64,000 bases of DNA from Eledone cirrhosa (taxonomy: Eukaryota): NCBI GenBank assembly GCA_964016885.1, contig OZ024743.1:59210001-59274000 (forward strand), written 5' to 3'. The notes beneath the pieces are model-generated. The model saw only the letters and a list, made by a program, of their open reading frames with translations, searched no databases and had not been told where the DNA came from. Below are positions 7,865 to 62,379 of the stretch, one piece after another. Position 1 is the stretch's first letter. Each line of letters opens with the position of its first letter. Made by a program: the position numbers and the translations under genes.

Positions 7865-7924
<60 letters not shown>

Positions 7925-7925
<1 letters not shown>

Positions 7926-10900
7926 CTACATTTATTAACCACAAGGGTTTACATAAAGTAGACATTAAGGACAGTACAGGACAATACTGGGCGATACAAA
8001 ATGGTATTTCTGCGTGTAAAAAAATCAAAAACAGAGGATGTAACAAAAAAAAACAATGAAAAATTCCCAAATAGGGGGGAGACTTACGAGGGACATTTGT
8101 GGAGAAAGCCCATTAAAAGGCCACAGTGACCCTGACCACCAGGGCAAGTGTCCTCTCCCAGTTTTCCACCTTTAATTTACAGACACATACTCAGAGTAGG
8201 CTCATTCACTCGGGCCATACTTGCTTCTCTCACCCATCTTTCAACAAAATGCTGGGAAGAGAGCACTTCCCTCTCTACCTGATTTTCCATTTCAAATGAA
8301 ATTTGAAAAAGTTAATCAGGGCATCGCCGAAGAGGTAAGTGCTCGTCTTCAGCCCTTTCAAACGTGTCCAGCATACTATCTCTTTCGCCATGGCCACCAG
8401 ACAGATAAAAACTGCCTGCTCTTCCCGGCTAAAGGAAGAGAGCGGGGCAATCCTCACGATAGACTCAGCTGATAGCTGGATCCGTCCTACACGTGACAGC
8501 AGGTGTTCGACATAAACTCACAAGTCAGCAATGTTCGGATACTGGACGAGTGCGTGCAGGACGGTTTTGTCGCCCTGCGCGCATTTCGGACATGCCCGGC
8601 TGACGGCACCTCCATGCCTCTAGAGTTTATCCCGAACTGGCAAACCTCCTCGGTAGCACTGCCAGGCCAGGGATTTCTGGAATTTGTCCATAGGCCCCGG
8701 CCCGAAAGTTCTTCCGAAGAGATTGGCTAGTTGATTTTCGCCGACGCCTTGAGTTTCTCCAAGTACGTCGTCGCTTTTCCCCTGCACTAATCCTCTATAG
8801 AACGCCAAAGTGGAGTTTCCACCGATCACATTGCTCGATTGGTTGAGGGCTGTGAGTGCCTGCAGACATTCCAGTCTACAAGCACCCCTTCTCGGTCTTC
8901 ACTTGACCCAGGACTGCAGCTCCGCCAAGGAGACGAGCTGGGAAAAGACGCGTCTAGCAAACGGCGACCACATCTGATCACCGTCGAGGAAGAGGTGGAG
9001 ATGTCGTAGCCTGAGCTCGTGTCTGCGCATCATCAGCCACAGCATGCCCAGCCCTCCACGTAGCGGGTGTTGACCATCGGAGCGCGTCCCTTCCACAAAA
9101 AGCGAAAGAGCAAACGCTCCAGCGCAGTCAGGCGGGGCTTAGGACAAGGTACGACGCTCAGGCGGTAGTAGATGACGGGCGCTATGTACGCGTTAGCCAC
9201 CTCCGCTCGACCTTTCAGGGATAGCTACCCCTCCGCCTATTTCTGTGTGAGAGAAGCCACCCTGCTCGTCACCTCGTCCCAGTTTTTGTCCGTCTGGAGG
9301 TCTGGACCGAACCAGAGCCCTAGCAATTTAACCGGTCCGTCCGACCAGCGCCCGACGAAGCTGTTGGACGGCATGGACCTGCCTCTCAAGGTGCCGAGTT
9401 GCAGGCCCACTGACTTTTCCTGGTTGATCATTGCTCCTGTCACCTCTTCGTATTCTCTTAGTGTAGTGCCGATCGCCTCGATGTGTTTGGCATTCGACAC
9501 CAACGGTGACATCGTCCGCATATGCTGACACGGATCTTCCGGATCCTAGTTTGCGCGGGACCCCCCTCAACGTCTCCAGTTTGTGCAGTAATGGCTCGAG
9601 AGTCAATACGTACAAGAGGGACGAGAGGGGACATCCTTGGCGGACCGAGCGCATGATGTTGAACGATTCCGAAAGGTGACCGTTCACTTTCACCACAGAG
9701 CAGATGTCGCTGTGCATGGCAGCGATCCAGCCTCTGAAGACGGGCCCAAAGCCAGCCGCCCTCAAGACTGCTTCTAGGTAACGATGGTCGACGCTATCGA
9801 AAGCTTTCGACTGATCTAAATTGATCAAGGACCCACCCGTGCCAGGTTCCTTAGCTATCCTATCTACGATGGATTGCATGAGGTGGAGGTTGTCGTGGAT
9901 GGATCTGTCGGGAATGGCGCACGTCTGCGCCTCTCCCACCAGACCACCAACGACAAGCGCCAAGCTCTTTGCTAGAACCTTGGCCAAAATCTTGAACTCT
10001 GTGTTTGGCAGAGTTATGGGCCTGGAAATTATCTATGTTATCCCCCTTGTTCGGATCCTTTCTCAGCAGCGCCACAGCTCCTCGGCTCACAGAGCTGGGA
10101 ATTCTCCCATTCTGTTGCCAGTTGCAGTATACGTCCGCCAAGATGCCTCCGAAAAATCTCTGGCATCTGTACTTAAAGTTCATAAGGCAGACCATCCAAA
10201 CCAGGCGATTTACCCCTTGTGCAGCCAGTCATTGCCTCCCGTACTTCAGCGGCTGTTATCATCTTTTTGTAACACTTCGCCTCAGTGGCCGAGAGCCGCG
10301 GCAGTCCGTCGAGGTAGACACTAAAGTCCATCCCTCGATCCGTTCCGCCGCTGCCCCCGAACAGCTGTGCGAAGTGTCGCTGAAAAGTTCACACATTTGC
10401 CCGGGATCGAGTAGCATGCGCCCGTCGTGGTCCACCAAAGAGCGGATCGTGGCTCTGTTGCCACGTCGCGCTTCCGCCACTCGGGCCCATTGAACGGCTT
10501 TCGTCCCCTCGTGTCTCAGAGCACGCACCCTAGCTCTGACAACGCAGCCTTCGTGCTTTGCATTGAAGAATTGGTCAAGGGCCAATTTCGCCGCAAGTAC
10601 GTCGGTCGCGATGCCTTTGCTAAGCGCCTCGTCTAATTTTCTAACTAGTTCTCCCTCTGCTCTATTTTCCTCTATAGCTAAAGCCTTACTAAACCTAATG
10701 GACACTATTCTAATCGCACTTTTCAGAGCAAACCACCACTTGTTGTTGACGATGAGCTCCGTCAACGCCTGCTTAACTAGTTCGCTAATCCGGTCTATGT
10801 AGCCCTTGAGCGCGGGTAAGGACGCGTTTAGCTTCAAGTAGCTGGGTCGTCGTCTATGAAGCCTATCTAAGTCAAGCACACAGATCACGAATTTGTGGTC

Positions 10901-13390
10901 TGTGTAGCTGACTATCTTGAATTGTGGACATATCTATTTCTCTACAAAATACTCTATCTAAATATGATCTGGATGACCCGATGGGGCTTGTCCATGTCCA
11001 CATTGGCACATTCGGGAAGTCCAATCGGTAGCTGTCAGACAGTTCAAAACGCCTGAGCAGGTTGGTGAGGCTCTTTCACCCTACTCCTCTATCCACTAAT
11101 CCCACACAGTCCCAGGGTGCATCTAAGATCCCGTTCCAGTCGCCCACAAACACTAAAGAGCGGGACGTTCAAAGAAAGGTCTGCAGATGCCGGAAGAAAT
11201 CAGGCCGCGATGCTCCTGTCGGGGCATAGACGGTACCTAGCCTGAAAGCTTGCCCGTCTCCGCTGGTCACGTCCAGTACCACCAACTTACCGTCTGCGTC
11301 CAGGAAGATGGCCCGTATGGCGAAATCCAAACCTCTCCGAAAAAGCACAGCAACTCTTCCCCCCGATCCAGGACGGCTTGGTGATGCGTACACATCGTAG
11401 CCGCCGTAGATCGATGCGAAGGCCCGTGCTTCGGAGATTCTGGTCTCGCTGATGGCCACTACATCTATGTTTAGTGACCTGAGGTCGTTGAGCAGGTGGC
11501 CCTGCTTCCATGACGACCCCAAGCCACGCGAATTTATGCTGCCTATTCTGAGTGAGGTCATGTTGAAATGGAGTGGAAAAGATGGGAAAGACCACTTACC
11601 TTACTTCTCGTAGAGGAAGGATGGTTTCTCCATCCTTTTTACTGCTTGTGGTCTCCTCCGGAAGGATGTCCATATAAATCCTCCTTGAGTGTGCTTGTCG
11701 GAAATCTCCGATGTCTCTGGGGAATTTTTGTTTTAGTGCCGTGTACGTTTTCTGTGTGATGCGTGTGATTTGTATGTGTGGAGGTGGTGTGAACTTTTGG
11801 GGTGTTGTGTAGTCTTTTTCTGTGATGCTGGTGTTGTGTTGGATGTAGTGTAATAGTTGGTTGTTGTTCAAATTTAATGCTGTGTAGTGTGTATCCTTTT
11901 GGTTGTTTTGTTTTGCTTGCGTTTGTTGTGGGTTTGTTTCTGTTTCGCTTTTTGGTGACTTTTGTGGTGTTGGGGTTAATGATGGTGATGGGGTTGGTGA
12001 TGCTGGTGTGCATGGTAGCATAGCTGTCCTAAATTTTTTGTTTGATAGTTTATTTGTTTCCTTCTGTATTTGGTTTTTGGAGGGGAAGGAAGAGGAGTTT
12101 TTTTTGGCTTCCTTTTCTTTTTTCTTTTTTCCTGATACCGTTTCCCACTCTCCATCGTCACAATCTGTTCCAGTTGCGATAGGTCGGGAGTGGAAAATCC
12201 TCCACATGCGTTGGTTTTGGTTGTGGCGTGGTGGATGTTGTAGGCGCTGGTACTAGTTCTGGCGCGTTGGGTCGTGGTGCTGTTGGATTTGTTAGTGTTG
12301 CTGGGCTTGTTGCTATTACAGTTGTTTCTGCTACAGTTGTCGCTGCCATTTCTGCTGCTGGTAGTGTTGATCGTTGAGTCAATGGGGTGGGTAAGAGAGG
12401 TGGCCTCAACGTTTTAGCCTGAGGGCAGAAAGCCCATAGGTGGGTTCCTTCACCACACACGACACACCTAGGCCATCTACCCTCGACGATTACGGTGAGG
12501 TGGCTGCCGTCACTGAGGTCTATTACCTCTGGGATCTCCTGAATGTGTTTTTGGTCCGCTTGGATCAGGAGCTCTATCCCATATCCGGACCAGTTCTTCT
12601 GCTTTTCTTTTACTATTTCTATTAAATTGCTGTTGACCTCGACAGCGGCGATCTTTACGAGTCTCTGGCCACATAGCTTGGGACGAGTGTGGAGTCGTTG
12701 CTTCTTAATGGGGCCATAGAGTGCTCTCTGGCCTCCTGTGGTGTTCCAAAGAACACGTCCACCCTTCCATATTTCTGCCCACGTCTGATGTGTGGTTTTT
12801 GTGCCCACACATGTCCGAAAGCATTTTGGATTTGGGACTCGGATGCCCGTTCCACTCGGCGCGATTTTATGTTAATCGTCCGATAAGACCCGGTGCATAG
12901 GCGCCGATGCTCCATTTTATTTAGTGGGGTGGGGCTGACCCTGTACCCTTCTTTCATTACCATTCTCTTGGCTTCATCTAATTCTTCCTGAGTTACCTGG
13001 ATTGTTTCGCATGTTTGGCTGCTCCGGCAAATGGCACGATGTTATTCTCATTGTTGTTGTTGCTGTTGTTGTTATCGTTATTTTTGTTATTGTTATTTTT
13101 AGTTTCAGTTGTGGTGGTGGTGGCGTCAGTGGTGTTCGGTGTGGAAGAGTTCATTCTGGGTGAATCCATTTCGATGTCACGAGATAATTTACTTTTTTCT
13201 TTTGTTTCTGTTGTCGCTGTGGTGGTGGTGGGGTAGAGGCTTCAACACATGCAGTCATTGGTAATGGCGGGAAATGAATGTCTGCATGAGACAAATTTAA
13301 ATTATTGCTACTGCTTATATTTTTAGTGTTGCCAAACGTAGTAATATTTACAATAGTGTGTCGGTGTGAGGTGTTAGTTTATGAGGAAGG
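7925..13390 (-). mobile_element. Tx1-like non-LTR retrotransposon copy 1 (degenerate, 5' truncated)
   Basis: ORF1 fragments 11596-13390 with CVVCGEGTHLWAFC knuckle; ORF2 fragments with APE (GSINSRGLG, ISET, YAP) and RT (LDQSKAFD, QGCPLS, YADD); 3' end abuts (TAA)n at 7873-7924. Confidence 0.95.
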
Positions 13391-15671
13391 TGTGACTGTG
13401 TGTCGTCCTGAAAAATCAGCTAATGGTTCAAACCTTCCCATCACTTCGGAGCTGGAGACCTCCCATAACCGGAATACTCCTACTGCTGGCCCTCCATGCT
13501 CACCACCAAGAAATCCAAAGAAAAAGACCACCTGATAACAAATGACCTATTTCCCATTGAGCAGAAAGGGTGTAAAATAGGCTCATATGGCTGTAAGGAT
13601 CAGCTTCTGGTTAACAAAATGATACTGGAAGATTGTCATAATAGACACAAAAATCTATCGATTGCTTGGATAGATTATAAAAAAGCATTTGATAGTTTGC
13701 CACACAGTTGGATTGAAAAATGTTTAGAGATTTTCAAAGTATCCCCCGTTGTCAGGAGGTTTTTGTCATTCAGTATGAAGACATGGAAAATGACACTACT
13801 TTTGAATAGTGAAAAAGAATCACTGGAAGCTGGAGAAGTTAATATTAATTGTGGAATTTTTCAGGGTGACTCTTTATCACCGCTCTTATTCTGCATCGCA
13901 CTTATACCATTAAGTAAAATGCTCAATGAAACAAAACATGGATATAAAGTCTATGACAAAACCATTAATCACCTGTTCTACATGGATGACCTGAAACTAT
14001 TTGCAAAAAATGATGAACAATTGCAAGGGCTATTATCCACTGTGAAGCAGTTCAGTGATGACATTAAATGGAGTTTGGACTAGATAAATGCGCCAAAGCA
14101 ACGTTCACCAGAGGAAAGCTGCTGAAGAGTTCAGACATTAATCTTGATCGGGGGAACGTGATAAGAGAACTTGATCAAGAAAAAACTTACAAATATCTAG
14201 GTGTTTGTGAAGGAGACGGAATCAAGCACTCGACAATGAGGGAAAGGATAAGGAAGGAATGTTACCGCAGAGTAAGAGCAATCTTAAGAACGGAATTAAA
14301 TGCAAGGAATAGGATCGATGCCATAAACACGCTTGCCATACCAGTAGTAACCTACAGTTACAATGTCATCAACTGGTCAAGCAGAGAGATCCGTAGGCTC
14401 GATACAAAAATTCGAAAATTCTTAACCATGCACAGAATGCATCACCCTAAGGCAGATATAGATAGAATATATCTCCCTAGGAAAGAAGGAGGACGTGGGT
14501 TATCCAGTTAGACATTGCGTTGAAAACTGCAACAATTGGATTATCTACATATCTAAGGGAATCACATGATTGGATGATCAAACTCGTTTTGAAACACGAA
14601 AGCATCAAAAGATCATATTCCATTACAAAAGATGCACAAAGATAGAGTAATGGACTACAAATTTCAGAAGTCCCATTTACTGCTGAAATGGAAAACACAG
14701 AAAAAGCAAAGCAGGTAAAAGCAACTGCAAAGAAAGAACTGCTACAGAAACTGGCTAAGAAATGGCAAGAAAAGCCTCTGTATGGAAAATACCCAGAGCG
14801 AGCTAACAATCCTGATGTTGACAAAACTTTAACCCACCAGTGGTTGGCATCCTCTGGACTGAAATCGGAGACTGAAGGAGTGATTATATCGGCACAAGAT
14901 CAGTGTCTGCCAACAAAAAATTACCAAGCCAACATAATAAAAAATGGGTGCAGCCCATTATGCCGTGTATGCAAAAAACAACCAGAGACCATTGACCATA
15001 TAATTCCAATGTGCAGTCCTATAGCTCCAACCGAATACCTAAACAAGCATGACAGAGCTGCACAATACATACATTGGATAATGTGTAAGCAATTTGACCT
15101 GCCCCATCAAAAGAATTGGTGGGAGCATCAACCACCTCCCATACTTGAAAAAGATCACATCTCAAACTTGTGGAACTTTAGCATCTAAACAGACCGAAAA
15201 ATAGATGCAAACAGACCTGATATAATATTGAAGGACTTTCAAAAGAGGGTATGCCTGCTAATTGATATGTCTGTTCCAATAGACAAGAATGTATCTATAA
15301 AAACATTTGAAAAATTGAGCAAGTATAAGGACCTGGAGATAGAAATTGGAAAAATGTGGAAATTGAGAACTAAAACAATACCAGTGGTTGTAGGCGCTCT
15401 GGGAATGATACCTAAAGGGTCTAATGACTACTTATCGCAAATCCCAGGAAACCTGCGGATAGGAGAAATACAAAAGATAGTACTAATGGGAACTGCGCAT
15501 ATACTAAGGAAGATTCTGTCAATATAAGTACATCACAAGTCTAAACACTAAAGATGCATGTGTGAATATGTATGTTCTTTCTTGAACATGGCGGACCTTG
15601 TTGTCTCTTGAGGTCACTGGTTGTGACTTGGTGATAACTCGTATGAACATAAAGCAAGATAAATGCAACTG
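13391..15671 (+). mobile_element. R4/Dong-like RLE LINE family A, copy 1 (5' part deleted, frameshifted)
   Basis: ORFs 13496-15527: EQKGC, IDYKKAFDSLPH, FQGDSLSP, YMDD, CRVC-ETIDH-C, KHD, RPDI...IDMSVP, K-x2-KY; 3' UTR followed by (TAA)n; 13391-13525 assigned only tentatively. Confidence 0.92.
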
Positions 15672-15706
15672 TAATAATAATAATAATATTAACAATAATA
15701 ATAATA

Positions 15707-15881
15707 ATTGTTTCTACTTTTGGAACAAGGCCAGTAATTATCCAATACATTACTGGTACTTTATTTTATCTACCCCATAAAGTTAACCTTGACGGGATTT
15801 GAACTCAGACCGTAGATGGATGTAACTATGCTAGAAAGCATGGCGTCCATCCCTCTATCGATACTGCCAATTCACCGCCCT
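15707..15881 (-). mobile_element. ATT-tailed tRNA-derived SINE (family 1)
   Basis: Minus strand ggcggtgaattggcagtatcgatagag...gagttcaaatccc...gataaaataaagtaccag...gtagaaacaattatt. Confidence 0.85.
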
Positions 15882-15887
15882 CATATG

Positions 15888-15924
<37 letters not shown>

Positions 15925-15951
15925 TAATAAAAATAATAATAATAATAATAA

Positions 15952-16300
15952 TTGATTGTGTATGTGGCCTGCCCGTTCGACACGAGAGTGCAAGAGAAGG
16001 AGAGGGAGAAAATTAACCGATACCAGGACCTAAAGTGAGAGGTGAAAAGGATTTGGAACTGCCATGAAGTCAAAGTGATCCCGATTGTCATAGGCGCACT
16101 GGGGACTATCTAAAAAGTTTCCAGGGATGGTTAAAGAAAATCGGCCCCTTCACGCTTTTTGGAACGCTTCAAAAGGCATGCTTGCTTGGAACAGCAAGAA
16201 CCCTCCGATACGTCCTGAATATCTGAGGCTGCAGGTAGTGGCTTGATATTCAATCCAACGGACTTTCCAGTTAACCAACATCAATGACTGAGATTCAAGG
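15952..16300 (+). mobile_element. R4/Dong-like family B, 5'-truncated 3' end
   Basis: Matches 20102-20436; (TAA)n on both sides. Confidence 0.9.
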
Positions 16301-16332
16301 AATAACAACAATAATAATAATAATAATAATAA

Positions 16333-19300
16333 TCACCGCCGCCACCACTCCATCATTGCTACCACCGCTACAACACCATCACTACAGTAATAGATCACAT
16401 CACCACCACCACTGCCTCGGTATCGACATCACCACCACCACTGTCTCAGTATCGCTACCGCCGCTATTCTCTCCCATTGCTTCCTGCTAGTTGCTGCCAC
16501 CACATTATAGAATGCCTACTAAAAAAGAGGAAGGCATCAAAATATATAGATAGACTCAAAAGAAAAAAGAAAAAACAAACATCAAAACCAAAGCAGCACA
16601 GCAACAACAGCAAAAAACGAGAAAAACAAACAGAGAAAAACAAAAACAAAAAAAAACAAAACAAAAAAAAAAAACGTAAAGAAGATAAGAATGAAGAGAA
16701 AAACAAGCGGACGGACAGAGAAGAGAAGGGAAAAACTAAGTCAGACATTCGAACACTACATTACAATGAAACTTATGCTTATTCATCTTTGGGTTTTTTT
16801 CTGCCTATGTGTTTGTTTGTTTATGTGTGTTCGACTACAGCGTGGTGATGATGCCACACAAGAGCCAAGTGGAGCGGCGCAACCACCGGAGACGGTGAAT
16901 CCACAGATGGCTATGTGACCATACATTCGCCAATCCTCGATAAGAGTGTTTAAATATCGAACCTAAACAGTTCGAATAAAGGTGAAATGGAGACTGGAAC
17001 GTCATGTGACAGACTCTCACCCAACAGGTGCTCCCTGGCTCAGCAGCAGGAACCTGACTGTCAACCAAATACTGCTGGTGTTGGAGGAAGAAGAAGAAGG
17101 AAAGGGGCCAGAACCAACTGGACGAAAGAATTGAATAGAACTATTATGCAATGTTACCTGAAAAGTAACCCCAAGGAGAGGGGCTATAGGAGCCAGATGC
17201 ATAACATCTGGAACGAGATTGGTCTATTTGAATTAGATGTACAAAAATTGGCCGGGCAGGCTCGGGTAATAAGAACTAATGGGTGGATAAGCGAGCTGGA
17301 ACTGGAGGAACTGAGCAGAGAGAATAGCTTGGAGATGGAGGGTGTAGTATGACAGACAAACGAGCCAGTGGGAAATGAAGGTGAAGAGGTCGAGAGAACG
17401 GAGGAACCACCCGAAGCAGACAATGATCTGAATACTGAGATAAATAATACCTGGAACAGAGATACGGCCACTGAGGAGATGAATGCTGACAGGCTAGGAC
17501 AAGATTCGGTTGACATCCTAAATTTAGTGGTAGATGAATTGAACAATGATAGTGGGAGACCTATGAACCTAAGATTTGTAGACAGGAAAAAGTTAAAAGA
17601 AACAACAGCTAAGGTAAACAAAGTCATCCGATACCTTGAGGCGAGGAGCCTTCACCAGTGCAACAATATCCTCAAAGCAACAGCAAATACGGTGAGGAAA
17701 CTACTTGGTATAAAAGCGAGAGGAAACAACAGACAAGAAAGAGCAGAGCCTTGGTGGAAGAAACGACTGAATGGTCAAATCAAGGAAATGAGAAATGACA
17801 TAGGAAAGCTTGAGTCACTACTGAATGGGACACTAAAAAACATAGGCACTAAAAATAGACTGGAAATAAAGTACAAAACTAGGAGGAAAAAGCTAAATAT
17901 TATCATAGAGGAACTGAAGCAACGCATTGTAGGAAAAAGTGCAAAAATCAGGCGATACAAGAACAGAGTCAGTCAGTATAGACAGAACCGCATGTTCGAG
18001 AACAACGAGAAGATGCTGTTTGAACAGCTTGAAGGGAAACAAAGAGGCAACGACTTGATCCCTGAGGCGGAACAAACTAAAACATTCTGGAGAGGAATAT
18101 GGGAGCAGTATGTTGAAAATAATGACCAGGCAGTGTGGATTAAGACAGTACAGAAGGAGATCAGTGAACAGGCAGGCCAACAAACTGATTTGAGTATCAC
18201 AGTTGCAACTCTTAAGGGGCAGGCCAAAAAACTAACCAACTGGAAATCACCAGGCCCAGATGGTGTGCAGGGGTATTGGATTAAAAATATAACATCCCTC
18301 CACCCGAAACTGACAACCATGTTCAATGACTGCTTGATGTCAGGTGAGGTACCAGAGTGGTTGACAAAAGGTACCACCGTTCTGATAATGAAAGACCGAA
18401 TCAAGGGTAATGATGTTACCAAATATAGACCTATCACATGTCTGTCCGTAATGTGGAAACTGTTGACAAGCATTATGTCTGAGGAAATCTACCATCGCCT
18501 CCACACAAACAACTTGTTACCGGACGAACAGAAAGGATGCCGAAAGAAGTCACGTGGTACAAAGGACCAGCTACTTATTGATAAGATGGTAATGAGGAAT
18601 TGCAAGAGGACACACTGGTCTTGCCATGGGATGGATAGACTACAAAAAGGCATTTGACATGGTGCCTCATTCTTGGATCACCAAACGCCTGGAGATCTTC
18701 AAGGTGGCAGATAACACCAGACAGTTGTTGGGCAAAAGTATGAAGTCCTGGGAAACAGTGTTAACATCATCTGGAGAATCATTGGGAAGCGTGAATATCA
18801 AGAGAGGTAACTTCCAGGGAGATAGTCTGTCCCCTCTGTTGTTTGTTCTTGCCCTGATGCCACTGACCAGTGTACTGCGAAAAGTGAGAGCAGGATACAG
18901 GTTGGGAAAGGGAGAGCTTACCATCAATCACCTCCTCTCCATGGACGATCTTAAGCTCTTCGGGAAGAGTGAGAAGGAGTTGGATGTGCTTGTTGACACT
19001 GTCCGTATTTTCAGCAATGATATATGTATGCAATTTGGTATTAGTAAGTGTGAAGTCATTGTGATGAGGAGGGGTAAGTTGAGCAGAAGTAACGGAATCC
19101 AGGTACCAATAGGTGAGATGATAAAGGAAATTGACTCTGAAGAAGGATACAAGTATTTGGGCGTTCTGGAGGCTGATGACATCAAGTACAAAAAAAATGA
19201 AAGAATTGATAAGAACTGAATACATTCGGAGAGAAAGGAGCGTATTAAAATCACATCTGAACGGTAGGAATGCCATAAGTGCAGTAAATTCCCGAGCTGT

Positions 19301-20437
19301 GTCTATTATTAGGTACAGTGCGGGAATTCTGAGTTGGAATGTTGCTGAACAAAAAGAAATGGATAGGAAGACTAGGAAGCTATTGACTATCTACAACATC
19401 TTCCACAAGAGGAGTGATGTCGATAGACTCTACTTAAGGAGATCTGAGGGTGGAAGAGGTCTTATCAGCATAGAGGACTGTGTTCAGATGGAGAAAAACA
19501 ACCTACATAGATACGTGACTGATAGTAAGGAGCCAATGCTCAGAACTGTACTGAAGGAGGGGACAATAGGCCAGGGTATGTCCAAGGAGGAAATAACATC
19601 AAGGAGAAAGAGCAGCCTTCAGGAAACATCCCTTCATAGTACCTTCTTTGAGAAAACTGAATTTAGAGATCCACAGACATGGAATTGGTTGAAAAGAGGA
19701 GACCTTAAAAATGCTACAGAAGGAATGTTAATGGTTGCGCAGGAGCAGGCCCTCAATACGAAATGGTTGAAACACCATATTTACAAGGAGGAGGCTAGCC
19801 CACTGTGCAGGATCTGTGGAGAGAGAGGAGACGGTGGCTCACATTGTATCCGAGTGTAAACACCTAGCCCAGACTCACTATAAGGGCTGGAGACATGATG
19901 TGATGGGCAGGGTGATCCACTGGCACCTATGCAAAGTAAACAATTTACCACATTCTGAGAAGTGGTATGAGCATAAGCCAGAGTCGGTGATAGAAAACGA
20001 TCAGGTGAAGATGCTGTGGGATTTTAGGATACAGACGGACAAGAACCTGGAACACAATATACCTGATCTGGTGGTTGTAGAAAAAGAAAAAAGATCGTGC
20101 CTGATTGTGGATGTGGCCTGCCCATTCGACACGAGAGTGCAAGATAAGGAGAGGGAGAAAATTAACCGATACCAGGACTTAATGTGGGAGGTAGAAAGGA
20201 TTTGGAACTGCCATGAAGGGAATGTGATCCCGATTGTCATAGGCGCACTAGGGACTATCTCAAAAAGTTTCCAGAGATGGTTAAAGAAAATTGGCCCCTT
20301 CACACTTTTTGGAACGCTTCAAAAGGCATGCTTGCTGGGAACAGCAAGAACCCTCCGATACGTCCTGTAGGTAGTGGCTTGATATTCATTTCAACAAACT
20401 TTCCAGTTAACTAACATCAATGACTGAGACTCAAAGA
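16333..20437 (+). mobile_element. R4/Dong-like RLE LINE family B, near full-length copy 1 (disrupted ORF 16987-20370)
   Basis: N-terminal WTKELN..IMQCY..RGYR domain, WKSPGPDG, YRPITCL, QGDSLSP, MDD, CRICG-ETVAHIVSEC, RHD, PDLVV-DVACP; (TAA)n tail 20438-20502. Confidence 0.95.
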
Positions 20438-20448
20438 GTAATAACAAC

Positions 20449-20503
<55 letters not shown>

Positions 20504-23700: not shown

Positions 23701-24166
23701 CTAATCCCACACAATCCCAGCGTGCATCTAAGATCCCGTTCCAGTCGCCCACTAACACTAAAGAGCGGGACGTTCCAAGAAAGGTCTCCAGACGCCGGAA
23801 GAAATCAGGCCGCCCTGCTCCTGTCGGGGCATAGACGGCCACTAACCTGAAAGCTTGCCCGTCTCCGCTGGTCACGTCCAGCACCACCAACTTACCTTCT
23901 GGGTCCAGGAAGATGGCCCGTATGGCAAGATCCAAACCTCTCCGAAAAAGCACAGCAACTCTTCCCCCCGATCCCGGACGGCTGGGAGATGCGTACACAT
24001 CGTAGCCGCCGAAGATCGGTGCGAAAGCCTGTGCTTCGGAGATTCTGGTCTCGCTGATGGCCACTACATCTATGTTTAGTGTCCTGAGGTCGTTGAGCAG
24101 GTGGCCCTGCTTCCATGACGACCCCAAGCCACGCGCATTTATGCTGCGTATTCTGAGTGAGGTCAT
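20747..24166 (-). CDS. Tx1-like ORF2p: APE endonuclease + reverse transcriptase + C-terminal CCHC (1139 aa, intact)
   Basis: SINARGLG, ISET, YAP, GDWN, WTW, YLDRVF, TDH; PGYWKLN; KSPGLDGLP, RPITLLN, LDQSKAFDRVDH, QGCPLS, YADD, GGLG, CPRC-ETVLHALVQC. Confidence 0.96.
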   Translation of the reverse strand: MTSLRIRSINARGLGSSWKQGHLLNDLRTLNIDVVAISETRISEAQAFAPIFGGYDVYASPSRPGSGGRVAVLFRRGLDLAIRAIFLDPEGKLVVLDVTSGDGQAFRLVAVYAPTGAGRPDFFRRLETFLGTSRSLVLVGDWNGILDARWDCVGLVDREGGCKSLTNLLRRFELSDRYRMDFPNVPMWTWTNRIGSSRSYLDRVFCREIDRSSIGCPQFKIVSYTDHKFVICVLDLDRLHRQGPGYWKLNASLPARKAYRDRISELVKRALTGAIVNNKWWFALKRAIRIESIRFSKTLAIEKNRAEGELVRKLDEALSKGIATDVLAAKLALDQFFNAKHEGCVVRARLRALRHEGTKAVQWARVAEARRGNKATIRSLVDHDGRMLLDPGQMCEAFQRHFAQLFGGSGGPDRGMDFSVYLDGLPRLSATEAECCEKPITTAEVRDAMTSCTRGKSPGLDGLPYELYVQMPNLFVGLLADVYCNWQQNGRIPSSVSRGAVALLRKDPNKGDNIDNFRPITLLNTEFKILAKVLANRLALVIGGLVGEAQTCGIPDRSIHDNLHLMRYIVERVAREPGTGGSLINLDQSKAFDRVDHRYLTAVLRAAGFGPVFRGWIAAMHSDICSVVRVNGHLSEPFNIMRSVRQGCPLSSLLYVLTLEPLLHKLETLRGVPRELGCGRSVSAYADDVTVVVSNAKHIEAIGTTLREYEAVTGAMINQEKSVGLQLGTCRGRSMPSNSAVVRWSDGPVKLLGVWFGPDLQTDKNWDEVTSRVVSLTQKWAERKLSLKGRAEVANAYIASVIYYRLTVVPCPKPRLTALERLLFRFLWKGRAPMVRRSICCQHPLRGGLGMPWLMMRRHALRLRHLHLFLDGDQVWSPFARHVFPQLVSLTELQSWVKRRPRGSAWRLECLQALTALDQSGNVIGGNSTLAFYRGLVEGKSDDVLGETLGVDENQLANLFGRTFGPGPMDNFQKSLAWQCYRGALPVRDKLYRHGGAVSRACPRCAQGGETVLHALVQCPSIADLWVYVEHLLSRVGRIQLSAESIVRIAPPPSFSLEGQAVFICMVAMAKEIVWWTRLKGLKTSTYLFGDALINFFKFHLKRKIRVEREVLSSQHFVERWVREASMARMNGPSLSMCL

Positions 24167-24200
24167 GTTGAAAAGGAGTGGAAAAGATGGGAAATACCAC

Positions 24201-26186
24201 TTACCTTACTTCTCGTAGGGGAAGGACGGCTTTTCCATCCTTTTCACTGCTTGTGGCCTCCTCAGGAAGGATGTCCTTATAAATCCTCCTGGAGAGTGCT
24301 TGTCGGAAGTCTCCGATGTCTTTGGGGAATTTTTGTTTTAGTGTCATGTACGTTTTCTGTGTGATGCGAGTGATTTGTATGTGTGGAGGTGGTGTGAATT
24401 TTGGGGTTGTTGTGTAGTCTTTTTCTGTGATGCTGGTGTTGTGTTGGATGTAGTGTAATAATTGCTTGTTGTTCAAATTTAATGCTGTGTAGTGTGTATC
24501 GTTTTGGTTGTTTTGTTTTGTTTGCGTTTGTTGTGGGTTTGTTTCTGTTTCGCTTTTTGGTGACTTTTGTGGTGTAGGTGATGTTGGTGCTGGGGATAAT
24601 GATGGTGATGGTGTTGTTGTTTGGGTTGATGGGGTTGGTAATGCTGGTGTGGATGGTGGCATATCTGTCCTAACTTTTTTGTTTCTTAGTTTATTTGTTT
24701 CCCTCTGTAATTTGTTTTTGGAGGGGGAAGGAAGAGAATTTTTTCTTTTTTGGTTTCTTTTTTTTTTTTCCGGATATCGTTTCCCACTCCTCGTCGTCAC
24801 AATATGTCTCCAGTTGTGATAGGCCGGGGAGTGGAAAATCCTCCACAGCCGTTAGTTTTGGTTGTGGTGTGGTGGATGGTGTAGGCGCTGGTGCTAGTTC
24901 TGAAGCGTTGGGTGGTGGTGGTGTTGGTTTTGCAGGTGGTGGTAGTGGTGTTGGTTTTGCTACTGTTGCTGGGGTTGTTGCTGTTATAGTTGCTTCTGTT
25001 GTTGCTGCTACAGTTGTTGCTGCCATTTCTGCTACTGGTGGTGTTGATGGTTGTGTCACTCTGGGTGGGTAGGAGAGGTGGCCTCAACCTTTTAGCCTGA
25101 GGGCAGAAAGCCCTTAGGTGGGTTCCTTCACCACAAACGACACACCTAGGTCTTCTGCCCTCGACAATTACCGTGAGGTGGCTGCCGTCAGTGAGGTCTA
25201 TTACCTCTGGGATCTCCTCAATGCTTTTTTGGTCCGCTTGGATCAGGAGCTCCATCCCAGATCCGGACCAGTTTTCCTGCTTTTCTTTTGCTACTGCTAT
25301 TATTTTCGTGTTGGCTTCGATGCCGGCGAGGACAGCCGCTATTAGCCAGGGAATTTCGATGGCCGGTGGAACGTGGGTCACCCTGATCTTTACGAGTCTC
25401 TGGCCACAATAGCTTGGGACGAGTGTGAGGTCGTCACTTTTTAATGGGGCCATGGAGTGTTCTCTAGCCTCCTCTGGTGTTTCAAAGAACACATCCACGG
25501 TTCCATACTTTTGCCCACGTCTGATGTGGGTTTTTCTTGCCCACACATGTCCCAAAGCTTTTTGGATTTGGGACTCGGATGCCCGTTCCACTCGGCGCGA
25601 TTTTACATTTATTGTTCTATACGACACGGTGCATAGGCGCCGATGCTCCATTTTATTAGGTGGGGGTGTGGCTGACCCTGTACCCATCTTTCTTTACCAT
25701 TTGTTTGGCATTTTCTAAATCTTCTTGAGTTACGGTAAATGCTTCGAATTGTTTTGCTACTCTGGCGAAACTGAGGGGGGGGGGGGGGGTTATAATGTCA
25801 TTGTTGTTGTTGTTGCTATCGTTAATATTAATTTTAGTTTCAGTTGTTGTGGTGACGTCAGTCGTCTTTGGTGGGGAAGAGTCCATTTTGCTTGATTTCA
25901 TTTCGACATCACGAGTTAATTTATTTTTTTCTTCTTTTGTTTCTGTTGTCGCGGTGGTGGTGGTGGTGGTTGTCGCGGTGGTGGTGGCGGTGGAGGCTTT
26001 AACACCTGCAGTCATTGGTAATGGCGGGAAATGAATGTCTGCCTGAGACAAATTTAAAATATTGCTACTGCTTATATTTTTTTTTGTGTTGGCAAACGTA
26101 GTAACATTTACAATGGTGGTGTCGGTGTGAGGTGTTATTTTGTGAGGAAGGCTTTCAGCTGCTTCGTGCAGAGGTGAAGTAGCCAT
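24201..26186 (-). pseudogene. Tx1-like ORF1p (RRM-like region, CCHC knuckle, T/P-rich tail) split by three frameshifts
   Basis: ORFs 25656-26186, 24797-25687, 24691-25059 and 24201-24800 join when compared with copy 1; CVVCGEGTHLRAFC = CX2CX4HX4C. Confidence 0.85.
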
Positions 26187-26679
26187 TTTTTTTCAAAGAA
26201 ATTTTTTTGATAATAATACAAGTTAAAATTTTGGGCACAAGGCCCCAATCTTTTTAGGTGTCCTTTTCGGAAAACAATGTATGTGTGCTTATAAACAGTT
26301 AACAATAAAATTTTCCATAAATGGCAATTTTTAAACAAACGGAAATAACAAACCTTTGCGGAGCTCACGATAATACGATTTCCTACGTAGGTCGCCAATA
26401 ATAATAATAATAATGGTAAGAAAATGCACATGGTGGATATATATCGTTATGGAATCGCTCCCGTAAGTTTTTCATTTTTACTTATTTAAAACAACTGTGA
26501 TAGAATAATTCTTATTACAAATGACCTATAAGATTACATTTTTATACGCTTAGTAAGCCACAACGCATCGCTTTACGGCATAGGGCCCCACTATTTAATA
26601 TTTAATTTTGGCTCAGAAATGTTATAGTCGAAAAAGAGGAAAATGGCAAAATGGCAAAGTGGACAGACAGGCAAATAAT

Positions 26680-29600
26680 TTCACCACCAACACCGCCACC
26701 GCCACCATCACAACTACCACGCCAAAATGTCTAGTCAAGTTACCTCAACTTCTATTTCTAGTTCAACTACAACACCATCACTACAGTACTACGATCACAT
26801 CACCACCACCACTGCCTCATTATCGCTACCGCCGCTATTCTCTCCCACTACCTCCTGCTAAGACATGCATCGTAGTGTCCCCACTAAAAGAGGAAGGCAT
26901 CAAAAGATATAAATAGACTGATTTGATGACCCGGTCAAAAAATCAAAAAACCCAAAATCAAAATCAAGACAGCACAGCAACAACGAAAAACGCAAAGAAA
27001 AGAAAAATGAAAAGAAAAACAAACAGACAGACAAAGAAGGAAAAAAAACAAACTAAGTCAGACGTTCAAACATTACATTACAATGAAACTTATGCTTATT
27101 CTTTTTTGTTTTTTTTTATCTATTTGTTTGTTTGTTTATTTATGTTCGTCTAGAGCGTGATAGTGCCACACTAAAATCACCGGGGGTGATGAAATCACCG
27201 GAGCTGATGAAATCACCGGTGGTTATGTAACCATAGATTCACCAATCCTCGATAAGAGTGCTTAAATGTCGAACTTAAACAGTTCGAATAGCGGTGAAGT
27301 GGAGACTGGAATGTCATGTGACAGACTCTCACCCAGCAGGTTCTCCCTGGCTCTCAACAAAATACTGCTGGTGTCGGAGGAAGAATAAGAAGGAAGGGGA
27401 ACTGCACCAACTTGTCGAAATAATTGAATAGAATTGTTATGCAATGTTACCTGAAGAGTAACCTCAAGGAGAAAGGCTATAGGAAACGGATGCATAACAT
27501 CTGCAACGGGATTGGTCTATTTAAATTAGATGAACAAAAATTGGCCGGGCAGGCTCGGGTAATAAGAACTAATGGGTGGATAAGCGAGCTGGAACTGGAG
27601 AAATTGAGCAGAGAGATTAGGTTGGAAATGGAGGGTGTAGTATGCCAGACAAACGAGCCAGTGGGAAATGAAGATGAACAGGTTGAGAGAACGGAGGAAC
27701 CATCCGAAGCAGACAATGATCTGAAAGCTGAAATAAATAATACCTGGAACAAAGATACGGCCATTGAGGAGATGAATGCTGACGGGCTAGGACAAGATTT
27801 GTTTGATATCCTAAACTTAGTGGTAGATGAATTGAACAATGATAGTGGGAAACCTATGAACCTAAGATTTGTAGACAGGATAAAGTTAAAAGAAACAACA
27901 GCTAAGGTAAACAAAGTCATACGATACCTTGAGGCGAGGAGCCTTCACCAGTGCAACAATATCCTCAAAGCAACAGCAAATGCGGTGAGGAAATTACTTA
28001 GCATAAAAGCGAGAGGAAACAACACACAAGAAAGATCAGAACCTTGGGGGAAGAAACGACTGAATGATCAAATCAGGGAAATGAGAAATTACATTGGAAA
28101 GCTTGAGTCCCTACTGAATGGGACACTAAAAAACATAGACACTAAAATTAGACTGTCGAGGAAAAAGCTAAATATTATCATAGAGGAACTGAAGCAACGT
28201 ATTATAGCAAATAGTGCAAAAATTAGGCGGTACGAGAACAGAGTCAGTCAGTATATACAGAACCGCATGTTTGACAACAAACAGAAGATGCTGTTTGGAC
28301 AGCTTGAAGGGAAAGAAAGTGGCAACGACTTGATCCACGAGGCGGAACAAACTAAGACATTCTGGAGAGGAATATGGGAGCAGGATATTAAATATAATGA
28401 CCAGGTAGTGTGGATTGAGACTGTACAAAAGCAGATAAGTGAACAGGCACACCAACAAACTGATTTGAGTATCACAGTTGAAACCCTTAAAGGGTAGGCC
28501 AAAAAACTAACCAACTAGAAATTACCCGGCCCAGATGGTGTGCAGGGGTATTGGTTAAAAATATAACATCCCTCCACCCGAAACTGACAACCATGTTCAA
28601 TGACTGCTTGATGTCAGGTGAGGTACCAGAGTGGTTGTCAAAAGGTATCACAGTTCAGGTAATGAAAGACCGAATCAAGGGTAATGATGTTACCAACTAT
28701 AGACCTATCACATGTCTGTCCGTAATGTGGAAACTGTTGACAAGCATTATGTCTGGGGAAATCTACCATCACCTCCACACAAACAACTTGTTACCGGACG
28801 AACAGAAAGAATGCCGAAAGAAGTCCCGTGGTACAAATGACCAGTTACTTAAGATGGTAATGAGGAATTGCAAGTGGAGACACACTGGTCTTGCCATGGG
28901 ATGGATAGACTACAAAAAGGCATTTGACATGGTGCCCCATTCTAGGATCACCAAAAGCCTAGAGATCTTCAAGGTGGCAGATAATATCAGACAGTTGTTG
29001 AGCAAAAGTATGAAGTCCTGGAAAACCGAGTTAACGTCAGCTGGAGAATCCTTCTGAGGCGTGAAGATCAAGAGAGTTATCTTCCAGGGAGATAGTCTTT
29101 CCCCTCTGTTGTTTGTCCTTGCCCTGATGCCACTGACCATTATACTGCGAAAAGTAAGCGCAGGATACGAGTTGGGAAAGGGAGAGCTTACCATCAATCA
29201 CCTCCTCTTCATGGACGCTCTTAAGATCTTCGGGAAGAGTGAGAAGGAGATGGATGTGCTTGTTGATACTGTCCGTATTTTCGGCAATGATATATGTATG
29301 CATTTTGGTATTAGTAAGTGTGGAGTCCTTGTGATGACGAGGGGTAAATTGAGCAGAAGCAATGGAATGCAGGTACCAACATATGAGATGATAATGCAAA
29401 TTGACACTGAAGAAGGATACTAGTAATTGGCGTTTTATGCAGGCTGATGATATCAACAAGAAAAAAATGAAGGAATTGATAAGATCTGAATACATTCGGA
29501 GAGTAAGGAGCGTATTAAAGTCACATCTGAACAGTAGGAATGTCATAAGTGCAGTCCGAGCTGTGTTTATTGTTAGATACATTGCGGGAATTCTGAGATG

Positions 29601-30600
29601 GAACGTTGCTGAACAAAAAGAAATGGATAGGAAGACTAGGAAGCTATTGACTATCTAATACATGTTCCATAAGAGGAGTGATGTCGATAGACTCTACTTA
29701 AGGAGATCTGAAGGTGGAAGGGGTCTTACCAGCATAGAGGACTGTGTTCAGATGGAGAAAAACAACCTACACAAATACGTGACTGATAGTAAGAGCCAAT
29801 GCTCAGAATTGTACTGAGGGAGAGGAAAATAGACCAGGGGATGTCCAAGGAGGAAATAACAACGAGGAGAAAGAACAGCCTTCATGAAAAATCCCTTCAT
29901 AGTACTTTCTTTGAGAAAACTGAAATCGAGATCTACAGACATGGAACTGGTTGAAAAGAGCAGACCGTAAAAATGCTACAGAAGGAATGCTAATGGCTGC
30001 GCAAGAGTAGACCCGCAAAACGAAGTGGTTGAAACACCATATTTACAAGGAGGAGGCTAGCCTACTGTGCAGGATCTGTGGAGAGAGAGAGGAGACTGTG
30101 GCTCACATTGTATCCGAGTGTAAACACCTAGCGCAGACTCACTATAAGGGCTGGAGACATGATGTGATGGGTAGGGTGATCCCTGGCACCTATGCAAAGT
30201 AAACAATTTACCACATTCTGAGAAGTGGTATGCGCATAAGCCAGAGTCGGTGATAGAAAACGATCAGGTGAAGATGCTGTGTGATTTTAGGATACAGACG
30301 GACAAGAAACTGGAATACAATAGACCTGACTTGGTGGTTTTGGACAAGGAAAAAAGATCGTGTCTGATTGTGGATGTGGGCTGCCCATTAGACACGAGAG
30401 TGCAAGAGAAGGAGAGGGAGAAAATTAAACGATACCAGGACTTAAGGTGGGAGGTAAAAAGGATTTTGAACTGCCATGAAGGTAAAGTGGTCCAGATTGT
30501 CATAGGCGCACTAGGTACTATCTCAAAAAGTTTCCAGTGATGGTATAAGCACATTGGCCCCGCCCCGCTTTAACTAACATCAATGACTGAGACTCAAAGA
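26680..30600 (+). mobile_element. R4/Dong-like family B copy 2 (more decayed)
   Basis: Colinear with 16333-20437 including leader; ORFs 27424-30540; deletion near 30560; (TAA)n tail 30601-30620. Confidence 0.93.
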
Positions 30601-30620
30601 ATAATAATAATAATAATAAT

Positions 30621-33378
30621 AAAATTGAAAAGAAAATACAGTATAAAATCAACAAGTGACGTAGACATGCTGATAGAAATAATCAAGCAAAAAGTTTCAG
30701 CCAAAGCTGCTCGTATACGGCGCTGTGAAAAACGATCTAGATTCCATAATGACAATAATATGTTCAAAAACAACCAAAGAAACTTCTACAGAAACATTGG
30801 AAAGTCAACAATAACTGCTAAATCAAGGAGGAAGTACAAGAATTCTGGGAAAAGATCTGGGCCGAAGAAAAAGTTCATAATATACATGCCCCATGGATAG
30901 ACAGACAAATGAATGGTACAGCTCACCTTGAGGAACAAATATGGGAAAATATAACAGTTGAAGAGTTGCGTTTGGCTCTTAGAAAAACCAGCAAATGGAA
31001 ATCCCCAGGAAAAGACAAAATACAAATTTTTGGATAAATGCCCTCACAGAGTCTCATGTGCTGTTAGCCCAACTTTACAATGAAATAGTTAAAGAGTCAG
31101 AAAAGATACCATCATAGCTAGTTAACGGCATTACATTCCTGCTTCCGAAGAATGATGAAACAAACAATCCCATAAATTACAGACCGATAACTTGCTTGAC
31201 CACAATGTATAACATTTTAACATCAGTCCTAACTGAATATACATATGACCACCTGATAACAAATGACCTATTTCCCAATGAGCAGAAAGGGTGTAAATGT
31301 GGCTCATATGGCTGTAAGGATCAGCTTTTGGTTAACAAAATGATTCTGGAAGATTGTTATAATGGACACAAAAATCTATCAATTGCTCGGATAGATTATA
31401 AAAAAGCATTCGATAGTTTGCCACAGAGTTGGATTGAAAAATGTTTTTGAGATTTTCAAAATATCTCCCGTTATCAGGAGGTTCTTGTCGTTCAGTATGA
31501 AGACATGGAAAACGACACTACTTTTGAATAGTGAAAAAGAATCACTGGAAGCTGGAGAAGTTAATATTAATTGTGGAATTTTTCAGGTTGACTCTTTGTC
31601 ACCGCTTTTATTCTGCATCTCACTTATACCATTAAGTAAAATGCTCAATGAAACAAAACATGGATATAAAGTCTATGACAAAACCATTAATCACTTGTTC
31701 TACATGGATGGCCTGAAAACTTTTGCAAAAAATGATGAACAATTGTAGGGGTTATTATCCACTGTGGAGCAGTTCAGTGATGACATTAAAATGGAGTTTG
31801 GGCTACATAAATGCGGCAAAGCAACGTTCGCCAGAGGAAAGCTGCTGAAAAGTTCAGACATTAATCTTGATCGGGGGAATATGATAAGAGAAATTGATCG
31901 AGAGGAAACTTACAAATATCTAGGTGTTTGTGAAGGAGACGGAATCCAGCACTCGACAATGAGAGAAAGGATAAGGAAGGAATGTTACCGCAGAGTAAGA
32001 GCAATCTTAAGAACGGAATTGAATGCAAGAAATAGGATCGATGCCATAAACACGCTTAAACCTACATTTACAATGTCATCAACTGGTCAAGCACAGAGAT
32101 CCGTAGGCTCGATACAAAAATTAGAAAATTCGTAACCATGCACAGAATGCATCACCATAAGGCAGATACAGATATAATATATCTCCCTAGGAAAGAAGGA
32201 GGACGTGGGTTAATCCGGTTAGATATTGCGTTGAAAACTGCAATTGGATTATCTACATAGCTAAGGGAATCACATGATTGGATGATCAAACTCGTTTTGA
32301 AACATGAAAGCATCAAAAGATCATACTCCATTACAAAAGATGCACAAGGATACAGTAATGGACTACATATTTCACAAGTCCCATTTACTGCTGAAATGGA
32401 AAACACAGAAAAGGCAAAGCAGGTAAAAGTAACTGCAAAGAAAGAACTGGTACAGAAACTGGCTAAGAAATGGCAAGAAAAGCCTCTGTATGGAAAATAC
32501 CCAGGAAGAGCTAACAATCCTGATGTTGACAAAACTTTAACCCATCAGTGGTTGGCATCCGCTGGACTGAAATCGGAGACTGAAGGACTTATTATATCAG
32601 CACAAGATCAGTGTCTGCCAACAAAAAATTACCAAGCCAACATAATAAAAAATGGATGCAACCCATTATGCCGTGTATCTAAAAAACAACCAGAGACCAT
32701 TTGTCATATAATTTCAATGTGCATTCCTATAGCTCCAACCGAATACCTAAACAGGCATGACAGAGCTGCACAATACATACATTGGATAATGTGTAAGCAA
32801 TTTGACCTGCCCCATCAAAAGAATTGGTGGGAACATCAACCACCTTCCATACTTGAAAAAGATCACATCTCAATCTTGTGGAACTTTAACATCCAAACAG
32901 ACCGAAAAGTAGATGCAAATAAACCTGATATAATACTGAAGGACTTTAAAAAGAGGGTATGCCTACTAATTGATATGTCCGTTCCAATAGACAATAATGT
33001 ATCTATAAAAACATTTGAAAAATTGAGCAACTATAACGACCTGGAGATAGAAATTGGAAAGATATGGAAATTGAGAACTAAAACAATACCAGTGGTTGTA
33101 GGCGCTCTAGGAATGATACCTAGAGGCTCTAATGATTACTTATTGCAAATCTCAGGAAACCCGCGTATAGGAGAAATTCAAAAGATTGTACTAATGGGAA
33201 CTGCACATATACTAAGGAAGATTCTGTCAATATAAGTACATCACATGTCTAAACACCTAAAGATGCATGTGTGTGTATGTATGTTCCTTCTTGAACATGG
33301 CGGACCTTGTTGTCTCTTGAGGTCACTGGTTGTGACTTGGTAATAACTCGTATGAACATAAAGCAAGATAAATGCAAC
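30621..33378 (+). mobile_element. R4/Dong-like family A copy 2 (5' truncated)
   Basis: Colinear with 13526-15671 from ~31247; RT and RLE motifs in ORFs 31196-33235; short TAA tail. Confidence 0.93.
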
Positions 33379-33595
33379 TATAATAATAATAGTGATGATA
33401 ATATTTATACTTTTATATATAATCTATATACAAAACAACATAAGGGTAATATATTGTATTACCCAGTTACCAGTAAGAAAATTAGCTCAATGTAAAATAT
33501 CAGATATACTACAGAGCAGAATTCTTTTCAGAATACTTTTCATTGTGATATTCTTTTTTTCTTATTCTTCAATATATTATAACGGATACTAATAA

Positions 33596-35819: not shown

Positions 35820-35883
<64 letters not shown>

Positions 35884-46532: not shown

Positions 46533-46535
46533 GAC

Positions 46536-46922: not shown

Positions 46923-46923
46923 T

Positions 46924-62378: not shown

Positions 62379-62379
62379 A

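Follow-up and report, generated by a model that had tools for sequence, protein, structure and literature searches.

Two families of long interspersed elements (LINEs) can share one target repeat. In Bombyx mori, TRAS and SART insert into (TTAGG)n/(CCTAA)n facing opposite ways and build mixed arrays (PMC7265360, PMC10088271). Here we analysed a 64,000-nucleotide stretch of the 3.0-Gb genome assembly of the octopod Eledone cirrhosa (contig OZ024743.1, positions 59,210,001 to 59,274,000; hereafter the window). In it, Dong-type LINEs of three families (DongA, DongB and DongC), with a predicted restriction-like endonuclease (RLE), are interleaved with Tx1-type LINEs, with an apurinic/apyrimidinic endonuclease (APE), and with a short interspersed element (SINE), mostly joined through (TAA)n/(ATT)n tracts. 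Like TRAS and SART, the two LINE groups sit in one repeat in opposite orientation. Unlike these telomeric families, both of which are APE elements of the R1 clade, they pair an RLE with an APE lineage and use an interstitial trinucleotide: the window is located 59 Mb into a contig of 379 Mb, and further loci are spread mid-contig over many large contigs. The system resembles TRAS/SART in its workings without belonging to it; opposite-strand sharing of one repeat by two LINE families was already known, and the interstitial repeat and the pairing of RLE with APE set the present case apart.

Each partner has a described counterpart. Dong of Bombyx mori (R4 clade) is immediately preceded by (TAA)n when read on its sense strand, gives a 7-TAA upstream cleavage product and carries a 5' hepatitis delta virus (HDV)-like ribozyme, according to the sections of PMC3774820 that deal with it; an earlier note on this DNA had cited insertion of Bombyx Dong in TAA repeats, in agreement with that source. 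The elements described here are likewise single-open reading frame (ORF) LINEs with reverse transcriptase (RT) and RLE in (TAA)n, read on the sense strand, but three families coexist and are interleaved with an opposite-strand partner. Among Tx1-clade LINEs, PMC4494074 describes, in the part concerned with microsatellites, Kibi at (TC)n, Koshi at (TTC)n and a crocodilian Tx1 at (TTCC/TTTC)n. The LINE described here, too, is an APE element with two ORFs that keeps to a simple repeat, but the repeat is (ATT)n. Surveys of octopus genomes report, in the portions available, that Dong-R4 and L1-Tx1 are abundant and recently active and that transposable elements (TEs) form hotspots (PMC13282606, PMC8967140); no analysis of target, polarity or nesting was found in those portions or in that of PMC10294476. 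The literature searched, in the portions available, held no case of Dong/Tx1 co-targeting of TAA repeats and no (ATT)n-specific Tx1, Repbase and the target listing of PMC4494074 being outside the scope of the search.

We took the 5' flank as the decisive side, since the 3' tail is the element's own, and tallied polarity at tracts of at least four units, in copies that were the best search matches rather than a random draw. Junctions were de-duplicated and the window's own loci were excluded. An end was counted as concordant when Dong read TAA or when Tx1 or the SINE read ATT. Concordance was found at 210 of 211 5'-facing ends (Dong 107/108, Tx1 66/66, SINE 37/37) and at 243 of 247 3'-facing ends (Dong 131/135, Tx1 69/69, SINE 43/43). 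Against an even split, 210/211 gives a two-sided binomial p of about 1e-61, a value to be read with the partial dependence of junctions within one train in mind. Pairs across a single tract included 50 in which a Dong tail met a Dong head, 32 head-to-head and 29 tail-to-tail pairs of Dong with Tx1, and 17 in which a Tx1 tail met a Tx1 head.

The flanks of individual families gave the same picture. An (ATT)n tract preceded the 5' end in 30/30 best matches to full-length Tx1 and followed the 3' end in 30/30, where Kojima's criterion for target specificity asks for more than 20% of flanks. DongB was preceded by (TAA)n in 26 of 29 non-window copies. The 5' neighbour of Tx1 was a LINE in 21 of 29 cases (16 Dong, 5 Tx1); at the 29 non-window 3' ends the neighbour was Dong tail-to-tail (7), Tx1 in the same direction (8), the SINE in the same direction (4) or unrecognised (10), and never a wrong-way element. 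These data support the use of one (TAA)n/(ATT)n target by Dong-type RLE LINEs and Tx1-type APE LINEs in opposite polarity. The earlier note had proposed, from the window, that an RLE and an APE enzyme share a target on opposite strands, and this was borne out by the 210 concordant junctions. It had also named a lack of 5' tracts at most copies elsewhere, or random relative orientation, as results that would overturn the idea, and the genomic LINE copies showed the reverse.

Each of the three element types has TAA or ATT at its end. The tracts could be nothing but the elements' own 3' tails, with unspecific insertion and pile-up wherever insertions are tolerated. The SINE largely fits this explanation, with a 5' tract of at least four units in 3 of 28 copies. 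For the LINEs, tracts of the correct polarity stand upstream of full-length 5' ends and also of variously truncated copies. We located 5'-truncated copies through their 3' ends and counted a tract if it was at least 9 nt long, upstream and correctly oriented. Such a tract preceded 14/17 DongA and 13/15 DongB copies (27/32 for Dong) and 4/5 Tx1 copies at many different breakpoints, and a wrong-way tract of at least 9 nt was seen upstream of none of these 17, 15 and 5 copies. This points to targeting rather than to tails alone. In the maps inspected, moreover, neighbours almost never interrupt one another internally. For the LINEs, tails without targeting are largely refuted as an explanation, and overall we consider it very improbable. 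As a candidate of another kind, (TA)n was tried as the true LINE target and rejected: several tails enter (TA)n, but the 5' junctions are nearly always ATT or TAA tracts.

The window itself holds a train of 25.5 kb (7872-33400), which we mapped by self-comparison and by reading of the junctions and which comprises eight elements and eight TAA tracts. At its left end, (TA)6 leads into (ATA)17 (7861-7924, the train being counted from 7872), which contains the 3' tail of the first Tx1-type LINE, Tx1#1 (7925-13408, minus strand). This copy has broken ORFs and a 5' end that is short by about 245 nt, and it is 91% identical to Tx1#2. It is followed by DongA#1 (13410-15671, plus), which lacks its 5' part and an internal stretch and has no tract on the side of Tx1#1. 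A tail-to-tail tract (15672-15708) is common to DongA#1 and the SINE (15709-15887, minus), which is about 180 nt long, has tRNA-like A and B boxes (identified by eye) and ends in a GGC-CTTGT-GCC stem-loop. A further tract (15888-15952) leads to a 348-nt 5'-truncated 3' fragment of DongB (15953-16300, plus), and another (16301-16333) separates this from DongB#1 (16334-20438, plus), which is near full length and has a single, frameshifted ORF with RT and C-terminal RLE motifs. DongB#1 shares a tail-to-tail tract (20439-20502) with Tx1#2 (20503-26396, minus), a young, full-length copy of 5,894 nt. Head to head with Tx1#2 across (AAT)6 (26397-26414) lies DongB#2 (26415-30599, plus), again near full length, and (AAT)7 (30600-30620) joins it to DongA#2 (30621-33379, plus), a 5'-truncated copy with a C-terminal ORF (32261-33235) whose fold is predicted to be R2 zinc-knuckle/RLE-like. 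The last tract (33380-33400) forms the right end.

This map confirmed the order and the polarity of each element given in the earlier note. Its claim that the elements are chained through tracts held at six of the seven internal junctions and failed at 13408/13410, where there is no tract and both elements are cut; a later deletion explains this junction most simply. The piece of about 265 bp that it listed separately before DongB#2 proved to belong to the LINE: it has about a thousand candidate genomic matches, runs on into DongB in the matches listed, with all 30 compared 5' ends aligning, and the first ~265 nt of DongB#2 are the 5' untranslated region (UTR) of the family. Just right of the train, a repeated element carries a 244-codon ORF (33883-34617, minus) without a Pfam hit, whose product resembles a DNA-transposon protein.

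Local inverted duplications do occur in the window (41683-42119, 46322-46727/52985-53391 and 58901-61280), and the train is known from assembly sequence rather than from spanning reads, so that it could be suspected to be a segmental duplication or an assembly artefact. Within the train, copies are 6-12% divergent and truncated at different points, and the Tx1 subfamilies have different 5' UTRs. Among ten loci walked over 20-40 kb from full-length DongB seeds, a choice that favours long trains, five had trains of at least 20 kb, each with a different order of elements. The different orders exclude segmental duplication as the origin of such trains, in line with the earlier note, which had argued against it from order and truncation points, and we hold duplication or artefact to be hardly credible.

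As controls we used 80 evenly spaced 10-kb stretches (800 kb), with the matches at L244 (a tandem array that matches only a low-complexity Tx1 linker) set aside. Dong and Tx1 cover about 6% of the control bases. They flank 11/26 control tracts of at least eight units, 7/35 of four to seven units and 1/109 of three units; of the 91 perfect tracts counted over the initial 400 kb, only 6 reached ten units. LINE neighbours were more frequent at Tx1 5' ends (21/29) than at the sides of control tracts (15/52, p 1.5e-6). Full-length Tx1 copies with both ends paired (17 of 20) had a median of 12 units upstream and 11 downstream, in the upper tail of the background. On contig C1, the first five long tracts from a pattern scan were all flanked by elements and concordant. 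Elsewhere on that contig (2,791,145-2,807,209), the pattern scan alone gave a group of six long AAT tracts at intervals of 0.6-5.3 kb, as expected of a train.

Targeting and polarity could be real and the trains could still do no more than subdivide long microsatellites that existed beforehand in regions tolerant of insertions, ordinary replication slippage regrowing the tracts and the elements adding nothing. Long tracts are plentiful (the pattern scan gave 171,718 overlapping matches to AAT of at least 11 units, and 12 of the 26 control tracts of at least eight units were bare), and SINE insertions contribute little tail. Measured against the 50% share of LINE-flanked sides among control tracts of at least 12 units, the 21/29 at Tx1 5' ends is a modest enrichment (p=0.012). 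We nonetheless judge subdivision unlikely. Nearly every full-length Tx1 is flanked on both sides by 6-27 units, even in the subfamily with about 100% identity among copies, which leaves slippage little time, and trains with 6-10 tracts would require very long founders. In many copies the DongB tail begins with a fixed AGTAATAACAAT-type start, and part of the tract is thus element-encoded.

We observed, then, strand-specific association of tracts with 5' and 3' ends, mixed trains of at least 20 kb at many loci and long tracts flanking Tx1. Probably, three Dong families and several Tx1 subfamilies insert into one microsatellite in opposite directions, nicking different strands and leaving a tract on both sides, so that neighbours keep landing. 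We infer the nicking and priming steps from standard target-primed reverse transcription. The Dong RLE would nick the T-rich strand, which would prime on the (UAA)n end of the RNA, and the Tx1 APE would nick the A-rich strand, which would prime on an (AUU)n end; target duplication, tail synthesis and slippage would together bring back tract length on both sides. Bare microsatellites, (TA)n/(TAA)n compounds, the ATT tails of a CR1-like LINE and TAA runs in a repeat resembling a miniature inverted-repeat transposable element (MITE) supply the founder tracts. Best matches in the youngest Tx1 subfamily are about 100% identical and Dong copies 93-98%, so that this subfamily mostly landed beside Dong copies already there.

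Several observations weigh against this mechanism, besides the seeding of the walked loci, the bare control tracts, the modest enrichment over long tracts and the tract-less junction at 13408/13410. Five Dong ends in targeted loci were discordant, mostly inverted segments, and four truncated copies (L096, L116, L192, L014) had no tract. Public reads (three runs of one sample and one restriction site-associated DNA sequencing run) over 32900-34300 did not bridge the flank, the signal being swamped by genome-wide repeats. No empty allele was seen, and renewal of the landing pad by the insertion itself stays inferred. The proposal of the earlier note that each insertion leaves or duplicates the tract on which the next one lands is therefore consistent with the long tracts on both sides of Tx1 as far as the tracts themselves are concerned, and conjectural for the renewal step.

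A wider reading is more tentative. RLE and APE lineages may have converged on one interstitial microsatellite as mutual niche builders, every insertion making new long (TAA)n pads, with LINEs as the main source of long TAA tracts, self-extending trains making up several percent of the octopod genome, a tRNA-type SINE riding on Tx1 through a CUUGU stem-loop and the DongC 5' UTR holding an internal landing pad for this SINE. For large cephalopod genomes, the shared target and its trains offer a concrete mechanism by which TE hotspots and long TAA microsatellites could arise, and they carry the TRAS/SART principle beyond telomeres, to microsatellites dispersed over the genome and to a pair of unrelated nucleases. 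They are also a clean comparative case of APE and RLE domains reading opposite strands of one repeat.

Other repeats take part as hosts. Both Tx1 and Dong have landed in the ATT tail of a LINE that is CR1/L2-like by its C-terminal protein sequence (L006, L037). Insertions of Dong and Tx1 also occur in a MITE-like repeat whose inverted ends contain (TAA)n runs (L211 2091-4935, L352 5452-5546, L096, L300).

The label Dong-type refers to domain content and target, the 120 listed homologues including no named reference elements that would tell Dong, R4 and Rex6 from Hero or NeSL. These LINEs have a single long ORF, with an open stretch of 906 codons in one genomic DongB copy (L256), and the window pieces match RVT_1. 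The three families are about 45-50% identical to one another in the RT; best matches are 97-98% identical within DongA and DongB, and Dong copies sampled as neighbours 93-97%. The C-terminus is predicted to combine a CCHC knuckle with a restriction-like endonuclease of R2-like fold: its C/H, RHD and PD..D..K columns are invariant over 56 sequences, its profile is nearer to R2 than to L1, and a structural model (predicted local distance difference test, pLDDT, 82.7) had R2 proteins as its top seven structural matches (E 6e-10 to 1e-5; query TM-score, TMq, 0.57 at E 6e-10). A single-sequence search with the DongA C-terminus against solved structures gave no match, whereas the profile and fold searches gave matches. 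Absence of N-terminal zinc fingers separates R4 from R2 and NeSL; the L256 ORF, which may miss the very start, showed no C2H2 or CCHC pattern over its first 400 residues.

No HDV-like ribozyme such as that of Bombyx Dong was detected. Our own HDV descriptor, used without a positive control, matched 0/30 DongB, 0/30 Tx1 and 1/30 DongC 5' regions, and Rfam scans of the window and both 5' UTR regions found no ribozyme apart from one chance-level hammerhead (E 0.84) outside the train. Some Dong copies have inverted 5' segments adjoining the tract (L088, L090, L202), resembling twin priming of the L1 type, here in an RLE element. In others (L068, L078, L081, L085, L182), the DongB 5' end is set off from the TAA tract by (GAA)n runs or repeated GGGAAG units, suggesting stuttering during 5' joining.

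Tx1#2 consists of a 5' UTR, a frameshifted ORF1, ORF2, an AACC-CTTGT-GGTT stem-loop near the 3' end, AATAAA and an ATT tail. ORF2 is open over 1,152 codons from stop to stop (20747-24205) and contains APE (PF03372), RT (PF00078) and zf-RVT (PF13966) domains. Its best solved relative is L1 ORF2p (E 6.5e-54, versus 1e-20 for R2), and its closest named homologue, from Argonauta hians, is 71% identical. The ORF1 region has a CCHC knuckle (C-X2-C-X4-H-X4-C), a feature common in Tx1. We assigned the label Tx1-type by domains and target, the homologue matches carrying no clade names that would tell Tx1 from other L1 lineages. The youngest subfamily shows about 100% identity among the best matches at the 3' end; with its open ORF2 it would be a testable candidate for an (ATT)n-specific integrase.

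At least three Tx1 subfamilies have ORF2 in common and unrelated 5' UTRs and ORF1 starts (26200-26396, minus; 46924-47130, plus; L025). Directly before ORF1, each has a TTGGG...CCCAA hairpin, the loop of which in subfamily a is CTTGT, as at the 3' end. Compared with shuffled sequences, the 5' UTR of Tx1b folds better (z -2.7) and that of Tx1a does not (z +1.2). An origin of the Tx1a 5' UTR by capture of a stand-alone SINE was unsupported, with 0 matches to one exact lengthened-tail pattern, a weak test. Many proteins in ENA assemblies match the Tx1 RT region at about 50% identity.

The SINE behaves differently from the LINEs. It is about 180 nt long and non-coding, with a head resembling A and B boxes by eye, in which ARAGORN finds no tRNA; it may resemble the Octopus OK and Nin-DC SINEs. 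The earlier note had treated it as a third, unrelated type that targets the tracts, and this did not hold. In a sample of the 28 best-matching copies, the 3/28 with a 5' tract mark it as not microsatellite-specific, and 22/28 have direct repeats of at least 8 nt, typically 10-20 nt and mostly starting with ATTAT, a few being of low complexity. Wherever it enters a tract, its polarity is that of Tx1, without exception in the tally given above, and its 3' end is Tx1-like. The GGC-CTTGT-GCC stem-loop lies at a similar distance from the tail as the stem-loop that ends every Tx1 subfamily seen (AACC-CTTGT-GGTT, AGCC-CTTGT-GGCC or GGCC-CTTGT-GGCC); among 84 Tx1-type ends the third pair is A-T in 43 and G-C in 20. 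With six Tx1 ends, alignment of the SINE 3' end against shuffles gave p 0.001-0.11 (uncorrected); the corresponding range with Dong ends was 0.67-0.86. A 3' stem-loop common to a LINE and a SINE is described as a mark of stringent pairs in the relevant part of PMC3747384.

From these sequence features, we lean slightly towards a SINE that borrows the Tx1 machinery through the common 3' CUUGU stem-loop. Such a partnership would explain its Tx1-like polarity together with a relaxed ATTAT specificity, and would single out a candidate LINE partner of this very common SINE. Crocodilian SINEU is mobilised by Tx1-Mar and shares its target preference, often in weaker form, according to the SINE passages of PMC4494074. 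The SINE described here likewise has the target preference of a Tx1 family in weaker form; compared with SINEU, it has a tRNA-like head and a short 3' stem-loop in common with Tx1, and the partnership is a putative one. Two points count against it: the likeness of the tails is short, with no homology past about 30 nt, and the comparison covered only Tx1, Dong and, by eye, the CR1-like LINE.

The SINE is also far less tract-bound than Tx1, and it is quite possible that another ATT-tailed LINE, of RTE or CR1 type, moves it and that it joins the trains only because tracts contain ATTAT. An ATT-tailed CR1-like LINE is present in this genome, at the two loci named above, and a great expansion of RTE-BovB in cephalopods is reported in PMC10294476. 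However, the CR1-like 3' end has no CTTGT stem-loop by eye, the SINE and all Tx1 subfamilies seen do have one, and SINEU-1 and SINEU-2 with Tx1-Mar provide, in the same passages of PMC4494074, a precedent for a SINE less bound to the target than its Tx1 partner.

A recurrent site of the SINE lies within a Dong family. At an internal TAATAGTAATAAT motif of the DongC 5' UTR, 11 of 26 de-duplicated copies (L152-L180) carry an antisense SINE with its tail at the same motif and with 5' truncations that differ among copies. The motif is a SINE hot spot.

The window holds another cluster at 43.8-53.4 kb. It begins with a DongC copy (43801-46528, minus) that lacks its 3' end and is joined without a tract to the head of the first of two tandem SINEs (46529-46923, plus), each followed by an ATT tract. 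Then comes a full-length Tx1-type LINE of subfamily b (46924-52743, plus) with a different 5' UTR and ORF1 start and ATT tracts on both sides. The next stretch (52744-53005) consists of (ATT)15, (TA)14, a palindromic MITE-like element (52816-52934), (TA)n and (TAA)n, and polarity reverses here, across (TA)n and the palindrome (52788-52967). The cluster closes with a SINE and 207 nt of the DongC 5' region (53006-53391, minus), an inverted local duplicate: 46322-46727 is repeated inverted at 52985-53391 with 94% identity. Among 30 DongC matches, the DongC/SINE junction of these segments occurs in the window's two copies only. The earlier note had described this cluster as flipped with the same polarity rule. 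Polarity is indeed retained by each element, yet the flip is not uniform over the cluster, which reverses at the block just described.

The palindromic MITE-like element, about 120 nt long, is inserted in (TA)n at 52816-52934 and also at 35758-35850. Near-perfect palindromes lie at 41683-42119 (437 nt, 99%) and 42315-42406 (92 nt, 100%). Two ORF fragments (771-1226 and 62334-62810, both plus) look like Penelope GIY-YIG domains but had no Pfam hit at E 0.01. Finally, 58901-59905 and 60422-61280 form an inverted duplication with 96-97% identity. A SINE (59261-59428) is present in one arm only; at the corresponding place the other arm shows about 30 different bases and may hold an empty SINE site, with a (TA)n run on one side and a short TAA tract on the other.

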